Source: a virus (taxonomy: Duplodnaviria > Heunggongvirae > Uroviricota > Caudoviricetes). Taken from it: a DNA stretch of 7,294 nucleotides. Of this stretch, positions 1-5,032 are shown in pieces. The stretch lies in IMG/VR virus record IMGVR_UViG_3300000059_000050, positions 1-7,294 of that record; one strand, given 5' to 3'. The position numbers and the translations under genes are program-made. The notes under the pieces are model-generated. The model did no database searches and had not been told where the DNA came from. It saw only the letters and a list, made by a program, of their open reading frames with translations. Position 1 is the first letter of the stretch. Every line of letters starts with the position of its first letter.

Positions 1-157
1 CGGCAGGAACGACTCCGGACGGCAAACCGCGCATGCTTTTTGGTTCCGGCTCCACCAGCACCCTGCCACCATGGAATACCTGCATGGATTCACGACCTAG
101 CTTAACGATAACCAGCCCGAGTTCCGGTACCAGAACAGGTCGAAGTAATACCCGCAC
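1..157 (-). CDS. Hypothetical protein, 5' part only (runs off the window start); candidate start GTG at 155-157
   Basis: Minus frame is open from 157 to position 1 (VRVLLRPVLVPELGLVIVKLGRESMQVFHGGRVLVEPEPKSMRGLPSGVVPA...). GGAGG sits 4 nt upstream of the GTG, inside the last codons of the 159-431 ORF (stop TAA, 1 nt, GTG), a coupling-type junction. No recognisable motif. A plus-strand frame is also open across this region, so strand assignment is uncertain. Confidence 0.25.
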   Translation of the reverse strand, partial: MRVLLRPVLVPELGLVIVKLGRESMQVFHGGRVLVEPEPKSMRGLPSGVVPA

Positions 158-158
158 G

Positions 159-431
159 TTACCTCCAGATCCGCTGCTGGAATGTGCGCGATGGACGTGG
201 AGGGCGTTCGGAATAAGGAAGCCTGACGGAAATTATCCAGTGTCGGAAATCAAGACTGAGATCCTTTCTGACCTCGCATCCGCGCCTGCGGTAACACTGA
301 ATCAGCCATTCGGCCTGTTCTTCAGTGCATGGATCATGCTGGTACCAGTCAGTTTTAAAGACGTGTGAACGCCGCCCGTGCCGGATGGCAAGATCGGTAT
401 CAGAATTGTGAAATTTGGTTTTGTGCGCCAT
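159..431 (-). CDS. Hypothetical 90-aa Arg/Trp/His-rich protein; position would fit a small DNA-binding or recombination-directionality protein, unverified
   Basis: ATG-initiated ORF whose stop is immediately followed by a GGAGG-preceded GTG of the next minus ORF. Composition is basic and Trp-rich. Weak SD, several rare codons and low purine bias at codon position 1 keep confidence low. Confidence 0.3.
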   Translation of the reverse strand: MAHKTKFHNSDTDLAIRHGRRSHVFKTDWYQHDPCTEEQAEWLIQCYRRRGCEVRKDLSLDFRHWIISVRLPYSERPPRPSRTFQQRIWR

Positions 432-502: not shown

Positions 503-533
503 GAAAAAACAAAACCCGCCGAAGCGGGTTTTC
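503..533 (-). terminator. Rho-independent terminator, bidirectional, ending the antitoxin-Doc transcript
   Basis: Perfect hairpin AAAACCCGC-CGAA-GCGGGTTTT at 511-532. On the minus strand it reads CCCGC-UUCG-GCGGG followed by UUUUGUUUUUU, 14 nt past the Doc stop. On the plus strand it is followed by TTTTCATT. Confidence 0.65.
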
Positions 534-546
534 ATTAGAAGCGCCT

Positions 547-1032
547 TTAGTTTTGCTGTTCTATTTTAAGCTTGATAGTTTCATACAAAACAATAGTTGC
601 GCCTGTTTTACATAATTCCCGGCTGTCATACGCGCGAGACCAATAACACAACCAGTTCTCGAGATCTTCTCGAGTATAGGTTTTGCAGGCCAGTCCCTTT
701 GCCATTTCCACGATTTCATCGCCTGGTGCTGTTAACTCATAGCCATTCAACAACAAGAAGACGTAACCAGCCATCATAGCTGTTCGTTTGTTCGCATTAG
801 CAAACGGATGATTCTGAATCAGACTTTCAATCAATACCGATGCCAGTACAAACATGTCATTAGTCTGTTCATACCATCGAACCATGCTGGGACGGGCCTG
901 AGAAGAACTTAAGTTATCTGGACTCAGGACACCAACGGGCTCATCTGGCGTCTGTAATTCAATTAGGGAACGATTGATTTCAACAAGATCATCAACCGTA
1001 AGGTAATGCACTCCTTCAACAATCTCAGCCAT
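547..1032 (-). CDS. Doc-family (death-on-curing, Fic/Doc fold) type II toxin, about 161 aa
   Basis: Translation contains HPFANANKRTA, matching the Doc signature H-x-F-x-(D/N)-A-N-K-R (P1 Doc has HIFNDANKRTA). Start taken at ATG 1030-1032 (MAEIVEGVHYL...); the track ORF begins at a TTG at 1041. Lies 18 nt downstream of a small ORF, the usual antitoxin-toxin layout. Confidence 0.8.
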   Translation of the reverse strand: MAEIVEGVHYLTVDDLVEINRSLIELQTPDEPVGVLSPDNLSSSQARPSMVRWYEQTNDMFVLASVLIESLIQNHPFANANKRTAMMAGYVFLLLNGYELTAPGDEIVEMAKGLACKTYTREDLENWLCYWSRAYDSRELCKTGATIVLYETIKLKIEQQN

Positions 1033-1050
1033 AGAGCACAATACCCATCA

Positions 1051-1230
1051 TTACACTTTTGAAAGTTCTTCCATGGCTTTCTCATAACGAGAAAAACCGA
1101 AATCAAAAGCATTTTTCACTTGTTCACGATGTGCGCAGTTTTCATCAATCGCTGGGCGAGGGACTGCCACAACGCTTTTATCGCGAGGCGGAATACTCAA
1201 CCGCGTGTGTTTTTTGATTGGGCAGCTCAT
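1051..1230 (-). CDS. Putative antitoxin partner of the Doc toxin, about 59 aa, family unassigned
   Basis: Small ORF directly upstream of the Doc gene on the same strand. ATG at 1228-1230 is preceded by AAGGA (MSCPIKKHTRLSIPPRDKSVVAVPRPAIDE...); the track ORF starts at a TTG 48 nt further upstream. I do not recognise it as Phd/YefM-like; the call rests on position and size. Confidence 0.5.
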   Translation of the reverse strand: MSCPIKKHTRLSIPPRDKSVVAVPRPAIDENCAHREQVKNAFDFGFSRYEKAMEELSKV

Positions 1231-1293
1231 ACTAATGAGTCCTTTTGTTTTCCGATTATTGGCAAAGCCATGCACCAAATTTGATACAAAATA

Positions 1294-1341
1294 GATCTGT
1301 TTGAGATCCTTAGGATAGTCTAATGGTAGCTAAAATTACAA
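1294..1341 (-). promoter_or_regulatory. Candidate promoter and operator of the antitoxin-Doc operon
   Basis: On the minus strand: TTGTAA (plus 1336-1341), 18-nt spacer, TATCCT (plus 1312-1317), then inverted repeat GATCT-gtttg-AGATC (1294-1308) near the predicted start site. Lies between the upstream terminator and the antitoxin start. Read by eye only. Confidence 0.25.
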
Positions 1342-1355
1342 CCTCATAATGCGAC

Positions 1356-1376
1356 GAAAAACCCGCCGAAGCGGGT
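1356..1376 (-). terminator. Rho-independent terminator downstream of hok
   Basis: Minus-strand RNA reads AACCCGC-UUCG-GCGGGUU followed by UUUUUCG. The 19-nt core AAAACCCGCCGAAGCGGGTT is identical to the hairpin at 511-531. Confidence 0.55.
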
Positions 1377-1447
1377 TAAGTGCGGGTGCGTTGAGGATGC
1401 CTGACACATCAGAGGTGGCGAGGGATTTCTCCCTCGCCTGGTCACTC

Positions 1448-1603
1448 TTACTTCTCAGATTCGTAGTCTACGAAGACAGCGACCTCCGTCTGGCCGGTTC
1501 GGATTCGTACCTCGCAGAGGTCTTTCCTCGTTACCAGTGCCGTCACTATGACGGTTAAACAGATGACGATCAGGGCGATTAACATCGCCTTTTGCTGCTT
1601 CAT
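1448..1603 (-). CDS. hok: Hok/Gef-family type I membrane toxin, 51 aa
   Basis: MKQQKAMLIALIVICLTVIVTALVTRKDLCEVRIRTGQTEVAVFVDYESEK is near-identical in pattern to chromosomal HokD/RelF-type Hok peptides as I recall them (TM helix, then RKxLCEVRxxxGxxEVAxF). ATG at 1601-1603 is preceded by AAGGAGAAG. The track ORF 1448..1660 is an in-frame extension from an ATG 57 nt upstream. Confidence 0.9.
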   Translation of the reverse strand: MKQQKAMLIALIVICLTVIVTALVTRKDLCEVRIRTGQTEVAVFVDYESEK

Positions 1604-2104
1604 AGCCTGCTTCTCCTTGACCTTTCGGTCCGTAAGAGGCAATCTATATGTGACGAGCATATAGGGGCCTCACTTCGATTTATAGTCGGGTGGGGCTTTT
1701 CTCTATCTGCCTTGCAGTGGCATGCCCGAGACAGATAGCCTCAAGCACCCGCAGCAATTCTAACTATCCAATACATCACTGCCAACACTTTAAACTCTCG
1801 CCCTTTAAAACAAGAACAAAATTCAACCAATCAGCATTGGACGCATACTCATATCCTAGAGAAAACGACTCTTTCTGTACTATCTACATCCATTTGATTT
1901 ATAAGCATTTGCCGCTTGCCATAGCCGCACAATGACAGTTTGCCATTTGATGTCAATAGATAAAAACGATCATTTTCAATGAGTTACATACTTGCAAGGC
2001 GTTGCACATCAGGCCCGATTGCATCAGTATCAAAAGATAACAGATGGTGCATTACTGCCACCTCGCCTTAATGTTCCAGAACTATTCAACTTGAGGAATT
2101 TTCA
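1604..2104. promoter_or_regulatory. AT-rich divergent intergenic region: expected hok leader and antisense control region, plus the promoter of the KilA-N gene
   Basis: About 500 bp with no convincing ORF and visibly lower GC than the flanks. Hok loci are known to carry long structured leaders and a short antisense RNA; here these are inferred from position, not seen. Several -35/-10-like hexamers are present but none could be assigned with confidence. Confidence 0.35.
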
Positions 2105-2918: not shown

Positions 2919-3002
2919 TCATCCCCATCGGCAAATCGAATACACAACCAGCGCCACCGCCATCGCAATTCCTGCCGTTGTGAATGCTTCAGGCCAGGTC
3001 AT
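2919..3002 (-). CDS. Possible 27-aa hydrophobic micro-peptide (MTWPEAFTTAGIAMAVALVVYSICRWG)
   Basis: Not in the ORF track (below its size cutoff). Its ATG overlaps the TGA of the upstream 191-aa gene as ATGA. One predicted TM-like segment. Ends 8 nt from the 2884-2908 hairpin. Could be chance. Confidence 0.25.
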   Translation of the reverse strand: MTWPEAFTTAGIAMAVALVVYSICRWG

Positions 3003-3574
3003 CGTAAAATATCCTCCGCGCTTATCAGTCCGTTTCGCTTCAGGTAGACCATCGCCTTCTCCGGTAATTTGCAGTTCGGCTTCGCTTTCCTCAATTGGCT
3101 AGCCAGTTGTTTAATCAGCATTGTTAATTCCCGTACCTGAACGTCCCCTTTGGTATCCTCATTGGTGAGGATACCATCGCCTTTCCCCTGAAGCATGGCG
3201 GCGCAGCAGGCGTTCCATGAGATTTCCTGAAGGGAGCGACGAATCTGTGTGCTGCATATACTCCTCCCTGACTCCTGGCTGTTAAACCATGTTTCAAATT
3301 CCGGCACTACCGTCGCTGGCGGGGCGGTGTAAAGTGGAACAACTCGCCCTCCCCATTGCTTAACACTACTCTCAGCGAACACTAAATGCTCAGCCCGATA
3401 ATACCCGGGGGCATCAATATCTTTTCTTTCGCTATCCCACATGTAAACCACCGGCTCTGCTTCCAGCGATGCCAAAGCAATCCGTGCCACTTCCATTTGT
3501 TCGCTACGAGTAAGCCCGTTTTCAAGCGGATTTTTAATGAACAATTCAATACGTTCTTTGGTGATAGCGTTCAT
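2999..3574 (-). CDS. Prophage early-region protein of unknown function, 191 aa; paralog of the 3578-4000 product
   Basis: AAGGAA lies 6 nt before the ATG. Shares RIALASLEAEPV and V(V/I)PLY-x-x-PPA motifs and a similar C-terminal helix with the adjacent 140-aa protein, with an inserted segment of about 60 aa. Confidence 0.7.
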   Translation of the reverse strand: MNAITKERIELFIKNPLENGLTRSEQMEVARIALASLEAEPVVYMWDSERKDIDAPGYYRAEHLVFAESSVKQWGGRVVPLYTAPPATVVPEFETWFNSQESGRSICSTQIRRSLQEISWNACCAAMLQGKGDGILTNEDTKGDVQVRELTMLIKQLASQLRKAKPNCKLPEKAMVYLKRNGLISAEDILR

Positions 3575-3577
3575 GTG

Positions 3578-4000
3578 TCATTCCTTAACCTGCAACTGCT
3601 TCTTAACCAGTTTACGTAGATGTGCCACAGCCATAGAAAGAGTTTCCACCGCTCGTTTATCCAGCTGTGGGGACAGAGACACCAGTTCGTTTATTGCGAT
3701 CTCAATGCCCTGTGCCTGCACTGTGGGAGCTGGCGGCACACGATACAGCGGAATTACACGACGCGGGTCTGCGTATTTATCTGGAGGACAAGGTAATAAA
3801 TAACCTAAACCAATTTGCTCAACATCTCGCAGTTCCTCGTCATCAGTCCATGCAACTGGTTCTGCTTCCAGCGATGCCAGCGCGATACGAAACACATTGG
3901 CAAGCAGGCTGCTTGAAGATTGGTTATCGTGCGCCGGGTCGCTCAGGAAACCAGTGATGAATGATTTAATTTCCGCGTTTTCTCTGGTAGTAGTGGTCAT
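3578..4000 (-). CDS. Prophage early-region protein of unknown function, 140 aa; paralog of the 2999-3574 product
   Basis: Start ATG overlaps the stop of the upstream gene (ATGA). Motifs RIALASLEAEPVAW and RVIPLYRVPPAPTV. Confidence 0.7.
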   Translation of the reverse strand: MTTTTRENAEIKSFITGFLSDPAHDNQSSSSLLANVFRIALASLEAEPVAWTDDEELRDVEQIGLGYLLPCPPDKYADPRRVIPLYRVPPAPTVQAQGIEIAINELVSLSPQLDKRAVETLSMAVAHLRKLVKKQLQVKE

Positions 4001-4206
4001 TTGTTAATCCTCAAAACTTTATGCCCGGGCGCAAAAGCACGTGTTTTGTCTTTACTTATTCGCCACCCGTCTTTACGGGCCTCTTTTGCACAACCAGACC
4101 ATGACGTACCGATATACTCACCGAAGTCTGGCACTGGATATACACCTTCCGTACACTGGCGGCAGTCACAATAGAGATGCATGGTGTAACTTGCGGCAAT
4201 AGCCAT
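3997..4206 (-). CDS. Small Cys-rich protein (C-x-C-x2-C ... C), putative zinc-binding, 69 aa; tandem paralog copy 1
   Basis: AAGGAGA lies 5 nt before the ATG. Near-identical to the 4817-5032 product (MxIAASYTMHLYCDCRQCT...GEYIGTSW.GCAKEARKDGWRIS.DKTRAFAPGHK). Four conserved Cys. Confidence 0.75.
   Translation of the reverse strand: MAIAASYTMHLYCDCRQCTEGVYPVPDFGEYIGTSWSGCAKEARKDGWRISKDKTRAFAPGHKVLRINK
4011..4206. repeat. Diverged direct repeat, copy 1 (about 196 bp; roughly 85-90% identical to 4837-5032 by eye)
   Basis: Aligned by eye without gaps to 4837-5032. Covers almost the whole Cys-rich gene; similarity continues into the upstream SD region. Confidence 0.8.
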
Positions 4207-4816: not shown

Positions 4817-5032
4817 TCACTCTCCTTTGTTGCTTCTCAAAATTTTATGCCCTGGCGCAAAAGCACGCGTTTTGTCGACGCTTATTCGCCACCCATCTTT
4901 ACGTGCCTCTTTTGCACAGCCAGCCCATGACGTACCGATATACTCACCAAAATCTGGCGACTGATATTTGCCATCCGTACACTGGCGGCAATCACAATAG
5001 AGATGCATGGTGTAACTTGCGGCAATACTCAT
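4817..5032 (-). CDS. Small Cys-rich protein, putative zinc-binding, 71 aa; tandem paralog copy 2
   Basis: GGAGG lies 4 nt before the ATG, which directly follows the TGA of the 119-aa gene. Same four-Cys pattern as the 3997-4206 product. Confidence 0.75.
   Translation of the reverse strand: MSIAASYTMHLYCDCRQCTDGKYQSPDFGEYIGTSWAGCAKEARKDGWRISVDKTRAFAPGHKILRSNKGE
4837..5032. repeat. Diverged direct repeat, copy 2
   Basis: Partner of 4011-4206, same orientation, 826 bp apart. Confidence 0.8.

Follow-up and report, generated by a model that had tools for sequence, protein, structure and literature searches.

The stretch of DNA analysed here, the 7,294 nucleotides of the IMG/VR virus record IMGVR_UViG_3300000059_000050 (hereafter the window), probably carries two autonomous toxin-antidote cassettes, a canonical hok/mok/sok locus and a two-gene Doc module, placed in tandem in a variable accessory slot; we put the probability of this reading at about 75%. 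Its gene content identifies the window as the delayed-early (nin-like) part of a lambdoid Escherichia coli prophage, with the replication genes on one side and DUF968-rusA-Q on the other. The presence of Hok and Doc is routine and already annotated, both toxins being named by RefSeq in at least 120 complete E. coli genomes; what is not routine is the uncharacterised family of the 59-residue protein encoded beside Doc and the hairpin-bounded cassette slot. An earlier note on this DNA had placed a Hok-family peptide (1448-1603) on the same strand as a Doc-motif toxin with an upstream small open reading frame (ORF), and profile matches confirmed this, the scores of both families being far beyond chance. 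The hok, mok and Doc-module genes and both of their terminators all lie on the minus strand.

The hok coding sequence (1448-1603) encodes a HokD-like toxin of 51 residues, nearly identical to E. coli HokD, which matched Pfam HOK_GEF (PF01848; 81.1 bits against a cutoff of 22, E = 4e-23) and phrog_251 (E = 1e-32); RefSeq annotates hokD at the homologous position. It is overlapped in frame by mok (1448-1660), a 70-codon leader present in the ORF list, with its start at 1660 and known in related phages as MokW/gef (213 bp). The Rfam family RF01794 matched over its full-length model at 1750-1601 (104.8 bits against a gathering score of 59, E = 1e-23). This family bears the name "sok", but the strand matched is that of hok and the match stops at the hok AUG, so that it covers here the hok mRNA 5' leader carrying the Sok target (1601-1750, minus strand); Sok itself would be encoded on the opposite strand. 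A promoter scan of positions 1-2300 revealed a sole strong sigma-70-like site, TTGGCA-N17-TAGAAT at 1785-1757 on the minus strand (10/12 consensus positions). As the putative hok/mok promoter, it sets the transcript start at about 1750, in agreement with the start of the RF01794 model.

In both the minimum free energy and the centroid folds of the 399 nt from 1750 to 1352, the tac-like element GGGUGCUUGAGG at the 5' end of the hok mRNA (1750-1739) paired with the fbi-like 3' element CCUCAACGCACCC (1396-1384), right before a hairpin at 1356-1377. The z-score of this fold was -5.8, and none of 100 shuffled sequences folded as well. A full-length hok mRNA, here of about 395 nt, has just this closed 5'-3' architecture, and what was seen as a terminator separating the toxins is accordingly the mRNA's native 3' end. 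On the plus strand, a putative sok (1617-1712) follows the canonical hok/sok layout, with a promoter-like TTGACC-N17-CAATCT (1617-1645) preceding an antisense RNA of about 60 nt that ends in a hairpin and UUUUCUCU. The plus-strand segment 1648-1715 folded into a long hairpin followed by UUUUCUCU (-25.5 kcal/mol, z -3.2), and by analogy with known loci this hairpin RNA is plausibly Sok. Sub-threshold Rfam matches to rsmX, isrK and istR were accounted for by the terminator hairpins alone. The match to the Salmonella prophage small RNA IsrK, in the hok 3' untranslated region (1356-1437, minus strand), reached 27 bits against a gathering score of 50; it is explained by two hairpins and probably due to chance.

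The second cassette opens 217 bp beyond hok and not 170 bp, as the earlier note had it, because homologues fix the start of its first gene at ATG 1230, with AAGGA as its Shine-Dalgarno sequence, and do not support the mechanically called TTG at 1278. This gene (1051-1230, minus strand) encodes the 59-residue putative antitoxin and stands directly upstream of doc, from which it is separated by an 18-nt gap with the double stop TAA TGA. The doc gene itself (547-1032, minus strand) encodes a Doc-family (Fic-fold kinase) toxin of 161 residues, or of 164 residues from an alternative mechanical TTG start at 1041. Its product matched the NCBIfam death-on-curing family TIGR01550 (127.8 bits against a cutoff of 38.65), Pfam Fic (E = 7e-12), the "Doc-like toxin" family phrog_577 (E = 4.8e-51) and the solved Doc chains 9vzc and 3k33 of the PDB (E = 5e-13 to 7e-4); RefSeq names the homologue death-on-curing family toxin. 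The catalytic motif, H75-P-F-A-N-A-N-K-R83, is of the Doc type, defined as HxFx(D/N)(A/G)NKR, in which K replaces the G of AMPylating Fic proteins. The extended motif HxFxNANKRTA was kept across aligned Doc sequences including P1 Doc. H75, F77, A80, N81, K82 and R83 were invariant in a six-sequence alignment that also included P1 Doc; across 56 relatives, H75, F77, N81 and K82 remained invariant while A80 and R83 were at least 90% conserved. Judged by these matches and this motif, 547-1032 is a Doc-family toxin gene. Antisense to its coding region, the scan called as terminator-like a perfect palindrome CTCGAGATCTTCTCGAG followed by a T-rich stretch (658-674, plus strand), most likely a coincidence of the coding sequence.

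Regarding the 59-residue protein, its sole family match was a full-length one to phrog_2208, of unknown function (E = 3.4e-40). Searches of Pfam, NCBIfam, PADLOC and, by single sequence and by profile, the PDB returned no relative or, for the PDB, no credible one, ribosomal protein S25 being the sole PDB match and treated as chance. A profile search of 1.84 billion representatives yielded 39 relatives, nearly all of them stand-alone proteins of 47-66 residues, and this family of proteins of about 55-60 residues shares an N-terminal IPxRD motif and a C-terminal QVxNAF..F.RYE.A..ELSKV. In the AlphaFold2 (AF2) model (mean predicted local distance difference test, pLDDT, 77.7), residues 1-33 were mostly coil, with no regular element of at least four residues, and were followed by a single helix (34-57), the pLDDT exceeding 90 over residues 41-59. 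An N-terminal K-S-V was considered as a mimic of the R-T-V phosphosite of EF-Tu and rejected, the Ser position not being conserved.

The pairing of the two genes is highly constant. In a viral set of 80 IMG/VR loci encoding Doc relatives at 69-99% identity (47 at 94% or more, 33 at 69-78%), a homologue of the 59-residue protein lay 9-22 nt upstream of doc in 80/80 cases. The pair also occurred in seven other contexts, for example in the Pseudomonas phages Sirocco and LPPA56 and in Dickeya and Serratia prophages, and in Providencia it was found at a non-prophage chromosomal site between topA and sodC. Type II toxin-antitoxin (TA) systems are recognised by a leading small gene, tight spacing and independent mobility, and the genetic evidence for one here, as far as gene arrangement can tell, is strong. 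Thus, of the type II module proposed in the earlier note, the conserved small partner directly upstream of the toxin stood, while the label itself presupposes an antitoxin role, still unproven, for a protein with no detectable kinship to Phd.

Each cassette ends in its own intrinsic terminator, in line with the earlier proposal of two units separated by such an element. The Doc module ends at 511-532 (minus strand) with AAAACCCGCUUCGGCGGGUUUU then GUUUUUUC, a hairpin of 9 bp that was called by the terminator scan (-14.3 kcal/mol). The hok mRNA ends at 1356-1377 (minus strand) with AACCCGCUUCGGCGGGUU then UUUCG. This hairpin, of 7 bp followed by UUUUUCG (-13.9 kcal/mol), is the terminal one of the full-length mRNA fold and was present at every hok locus examined; it was not called by the consensus scan because its T-run is shorter. 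Positions 511-530 and 1358-1377 form an exact 20-nt direct repeat, AACCCGCTTCGGCGGGTTTT, whose copies lie 847 bp apart. The idea that the doc terminator is a duplicated hok terminator was rejected, as the hairpin also trails doc in phages that lack hok. It followed doc in 62 of the 80 viral loci, hok-less ones included, with at least five different downstream flanks, as well as in O104:H4 and, as a one-base loop variant, in Dickeya. Since it follows doc in hok-less loci with varied flanks, AACCCGCTTCGGCGGGTTTT is the Doc module's own terminator, identical in sequence to that of hok. A plus-strand ORF at 378-569, which spans this terminator into the 3' end of doc, has a RefSeq equivalent (WP_001394303.1, 63 residues, hypothetical protein) and is probably a spurious call.

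The distribution of the two cassettes was examined in the same viral set and in complete genomes. The hok gene preceded the Doc pair in 41 of the 47 loci with at least 94% Doc identity, four others lacking hok and two lying at contig edges. At 69-78% identity, hok stood next to the pair in 0/32 interpretable loci, the 33rd being at a contig edge. The Doc cassette (489-1356) was found in 125 of 5,426 complete E. coli genomes, joined to hok in 120 of them, and about 4,700 such genomes carry hok-like loci. The slot that it fills holds other contents elsewhere. In O157:H7 it is empty, a single hairpin carrying both flanks, and this empty allele is the exact product expected from recombination between two hairpin copies. 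In K-12 Qin and PPompW the slot holds rem, and in E. coli N18-04097 (locus L004, 2546-4280) it holds the Rosmer system, identified by PADLOC through RmrT (E = 1.4e-24) and RmrA (helix-turn-helix and M78 peptidase; E = 1.5e-105). The Rosmer cassette is flanked by two near-identical hairpin copies, with 18/20 matches on one side. Between mosaics, sequence similarity stops at the hairpin, and the joints fall right after it in different phages (window 511-530 and 1358-1377; locus L003, 2520-2545).

Because hok adjoins doc only in a close E. coli group, other slot alleles exist and the hairpin travels with doc, hok/mok/sok and the Doc pair are, on this distribution, independent autonomous cassettes. 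The claim of two independent toxin units thereby gained support: the co-occurrence of hok and doc is confined to that group, the partner was retained in 80/80 loci and the terminator in 62/80, and the hok mRNA has its own 3' end. With its own terminator, its G+C content of 42% against 52-54% in the flanks and its absence from most sister prophages, the Doc cassette is by composition and distribution a moron.

Several points weigh against the reading of two working toxin-antidote cassettes. The toxin activity of Hok and Doc in this prophage is a sequence-based prediction, a number of hok loci on the K-12 chromosome are regarded as inactive, and the AF2 model of Doc alone was poor (pLDDT 49). 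At the hok locus, the candidate Sok promoter matched the consensus weakly (7/12), and the short U-tract of the hok-proximal terminator (5 U) means that read-through from hok or antiterminated early transcripts could contribute to expression of the Doc pair. No strong promoter consensus was found in the region 1231-1355 upstream of that pair, the best site matching at 8/12. As a defence system, the pair drew no credible hit from PADLOC. The 59-residue protein showed no significant similarity to P1 Phd (hhalign probability 0.4%). When the two were compared anchored at the C-terminus, F42, F46 and L56 fell in register with the Phd hot spots F56, F60 and L70; with a score no better than the top 3% of shuffles, this comparison is too weak a basis for claiming kinship, and no direct similarity to Phd could be demonstrated. 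Finally, neither the family searches nor the AF2 model revealed a recognisable DNA-binding domain in this protein, which leaves the autoregulation typical of type II systems unexplained.

The weak promoter leads to the best-surviving alternative, which we nevertheless consider improbable: the two modules would form one transcriptional unit, in which the Doc pair, lacking a functional promoter of its own, would depend on leakage through the weak hok terminator in the lysogen or, once the prophage is induced, on early-operon transcripts that are antiterminated. Besides the 8/12 match, this explanation draws on the hok-proximal hairpin, with its 7 bp and 5 U missed by the scan, and on the operon position. 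The earlier note had put the islet at the end of the early operon; it is in fact mid-operon, the 90-residue ORF, DUF968/ydfU, rusA and the Q antiterminator lying downstream on the same strand. Both terminators are therefore in the path to Q, and transcripts bound for Q must cross the two modules, presumably under antitermination, an expectation based on the lambda nin region.

Against a single unit stands the evidence on the Doc promoter and on the mobility of the pair. The putative sigma-70 promoter, TTGTAA-N18-TATCCT (1312-1341, minus strand), has an imperfect inverted repeat centred on TAGCTA in its spacer. The O104:H4 version of 1231-1355 is about 55-60% identical by eye and keeps GGTTGTRA and ATTAGRCTATSCTAA at the same places, so that the -35 and -10 islands are the kept parts of an otherwise diverged upstream region. 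A hok-less context (locus L033) keeps TAGCTA...ATTAGACTAATCTAA, and the Pseudomonas phage homologues have TTGACA-N17/18-AACAAT at an equal distance from the start codon. In Providencia (locus L012, 2730-2775) the pair has a good promoter, TTGACT-N17-CATTAT, at its chromosomal site. These conserved sites make a module-borne Doc promoter likely. In addition, the pair occurs without hok in 32 of the 33 more distant viral loci (the last being at a contig edge) and in four close ones, and the 5'-3' closure of the hok mRNA needs a defined 3' end. The spacer of the Providencia promoter contains a perfect palindrome, AATGAAAG-TTAG-CTTTCATT, which looks like an operator, though the 59-residue protein shows no DNA-binding domain.

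A second alternative, to which we give little credence, concerns the function of the partner: the 59-residue protein would serve not as an antitoxin but as co-factor, specificity subunit or regulator, and Doc would be a lytic phage effector, for example modulating host translation, outside any addiction or abortive-infection module. It is favoured by the lack of homology to any known antitoxin in Pfam, NCBIfam, the PDB and hhalign comparisons (the PDB profile search with this protein did not find Phd either), by the missing DNA-binding domain, by the location inside the delayed-early operon and by the silence of PADLOC on the pair. It fits poorly with the classic type II arrangement, in which the small gene comes first, the gap is about 20 nt or less, co-occurrence is complete (80/80) and a non-phage chromosomal site is occupied, and with a pair that moves independently, as a cassette carrying a terminator of its own. 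Moreover, Phd-type elements neutralise Doc by a single C-terminal helix, and this helical element of Phd suffices even when grafted on unrelated carriers (PMC10440598, PMC9207808), so a "helix-only" antitoxin is mechanistically reasonable. We therefore retain the 59-residue protein as a putative minimal antitoxin, not detectably related to Phd.

The least probable alternative, that the cassettes are inactive relics whose toxin(s) or control elements decayed in a grounded prophage and have no present function, can point to the loss of the hokD leader in K-12 Qin through the relBE insertion (PMC6379469), to Salmonella phage SW-37, in which both Doc-module genes are present and both frameshifted, and to decay reported for several chromosomal hok loci, but here the promoter, leader, mok, hok, 3' closure, terminator and both Doc-module ORFs with the invariant catalytic motif are all intact, and more than 100 genomes share the Doc cassette at 98-99% conservation.

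With two autonomous cassettes as the preferred reading, the following mechanism can be proposed. The sigma-70 promoter at 1785-1757 would produce the hok mRNA of about 395 nt, which the pairing of its 5' end with the 3' element before the 1356-1377 terminator would keep translationally inert. By analogy with R1 hok/sok, 3' trimming would open the mRNA and translation of mok would drive that of hok, whereas the short plus-strand antisense Sok RNA (about 1650-1710) would block mok and trigger decay; the 51-residue Hok would kill through damage to the inner membrane. The Doc module would run from its own weak promoter at about 1341-1312 to its own terminator at 511-532. Its Doc-type Fic-fold kinase presumably phosphorylates EF-Tu and so stops translation, and the 59-residue product presumably neutralises Doc by docking its C-terminal amphipathic helix on the toxin, as the C-terminal helix of Phd does. 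Recombination between the two 20-nt hairpin copies would restore the empty allele.

A more far-reaching pair of linked proposals is put forward tentatively, since we think it possible but rather doubtful that both hold: (a) the 59-residue protein is the founding member of an uncharacterised antitoxin family, minimal in design, that acts on Doc and has no detectable kinship to Phd, and (b) the AACCCGCTTCGGCGGGTTTT hairpin is a recombination joint that swaps Doc and Rosmer cassettes behind hok in lambdoid prophages. If (a) is true, one C-terminal helix together with the conserved IPxRD motif can make up an antitoxin that lacks a DNA-binding domain, and this Doc subfamily would be controlled unlike Phd-Doc, for instance without classical conditional cooperativity. 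Doc inhibitors could then be modelled on such a simple natural single-helix antitoxin, and it would show how a TA pair can be regulated when its antitoxin does not bind DNA. In any case, the 59-residue protein is a compact, conserved partner of a widespread enterobacterial Doc subfamily and has apparently not been characterised by anyone. If (b) is true, the hairpins bound a cassette exchange system for toxin and defence cargo. The hairpin may be a generic strong terminator or a recombination joint, and both readings stand. In lambdoid E. coli prophages, the hok-anchored stretch between the replication genes and Q is a swap site: it can hold the Doc pair, Rosmer, rem or nothing, has relBE and BstA as neighbours, and is useful for finding new defence cargo.

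Literature searches with the accessions of the RefSeq proteins, and for the combination of doc and hokD, retrieved nothing relevant. The closest precedent for the tandem arrangement is the K-12 cryptic prophage Qin, with the order relB-relE-hokD-rem-ydfU-Q. The two loci have in common the backbone position (hokD, rem, ydfU (DUF968), Q), the hok terminator sequence and a type II or type II-like TA system beside a type I hok. In Qin, however, the type II system is RelBE, with an RNase toxin, and lies upstream of hok; its integration removed the leader with mok and sok, and hokD is co-transcribed with relBE (PMC6379469). The arrangement in the window is the mirror image of this situation: hok keeps all its control elements, and the Doc pair stands downstream, in the rem position behind the terminator. 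With plasmid R1 and the E. coli chromosomal and prophage hok loci, the first cassette shares the common Hok peptide, an in-frame mok, the RF01794 leader, the tac-fbi type of closure and the mRNA length of about 400 nt, together with a predicted antisense hairpin RNA. It differs from R1 hok/sok in its location in a prophage and not on a plasmid, and its Sok promoter is a candidate, its activity a prediction.

The second cassette resembles the Phd-Doc systems of P1, Salmonella Typhimurium and Enterococcus faecalis by the Doc branch of the Fic fold, the HxFx[D/N]ANKR motif, the small gene placed first and the predicted C-terminal helix of the partner. This partner has 59 residues against 73 for Phd, is devoid of the Phd/YefM DNA-binding domain and has its own N-terminal IPxRD motif, while the toxin is about 35 residues longer than P1 Doc and 22% identical to it. 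Like morons and prophage hotspots such as the HK97-type morons, the P2/P4 hotspots and BstA of BTP1, the Doc cassette is a self-contained unit of putative promoter, gene(s) and terminator with aberrant G+C content and presence/absence polymorphism (PMC3594210, PMC9122126, PMC8585504), and alternative defence cargo (Rosmer, BstA, RelE/ParE) is found in or beside the slot. Unlike other hotspots, this slot lies inside the lambdoid early operon and is anchored on hok, with Doc and Rosmer bounded by near-identical copies of one terminator hairpin.

Divergent from hok, a BstA-like abortive-infection gene with an N-terminal KilA-N domain is encoded at 2105-2878 on the plus strand (G+C content 41%). 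Its product, a full-length BstA homologue, matched phrog_6287 over residues 1-254 (E = 3e-89), PADLOC BstA (E = 6e-21) and Pfam KilA-N (E = 4e-27). BstA acts in abortive infection (PMC8585504), and its adjacent homologue strengthens the earlier idea of an addiction or defence islet. The Hok cassette, the Doc pair and the BstA homologue would form a small prophage-borne islet of addiction or abortive infection. In BTP1, the anti-BstA DNA element, aba, overlaps the start codon; by eye, TTTCAAT occurs twice around the start codon of the BstA-like gene, near 2099 and 2115. In O104:H4, a RelE/ParE-family toxin and a helix-turn-helix protein are encoded on the opposite strand immediately downstream of the Doc cassette (locus L009, 2360-2989), and ORF6N, ninB and ninE come next instead of DUF968.

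Read from right to left, the window contains DUF1627, Ead/Ea22-like, DUF7167, DUF4014 and other small ORFs of the delayed-early post-replication region, then the plus-strand BstA homologue, hok, the Doc pair, the 90-residue ORF and the start of DUF968/ydfU. The last two are early-operon genes (1-431, minus strand), comprising the 90-residue ORF at 159-431 and the 5' end of the DUF968/ydfU gene at 1-157, assigned from homologous RefSeq loci (hypothetical protein, DUF968, rusA, Q) and phrog_1212; in the RefSeq loci of relatives, rusA and Q come after DUF968/ydfU. Two small Cys-rich ORFs (3997-4206 and 4817-5032, minus strand; 69 and 71 residues) are paralogues, about 85% identical by eye and with no Pfam family; they lie about 800 bp apart and flank a DUF7576-like ORF and the DUF4014 ORF. 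The adjacent ORFs 2999-3574 and 3578-4000 (minus strand), with no Pfam match, have in common an internal IALASLEAEPV segment, and a related ORF of locus L033 shares the C-terminal part; this points to modular domain shuffling among these early genes.

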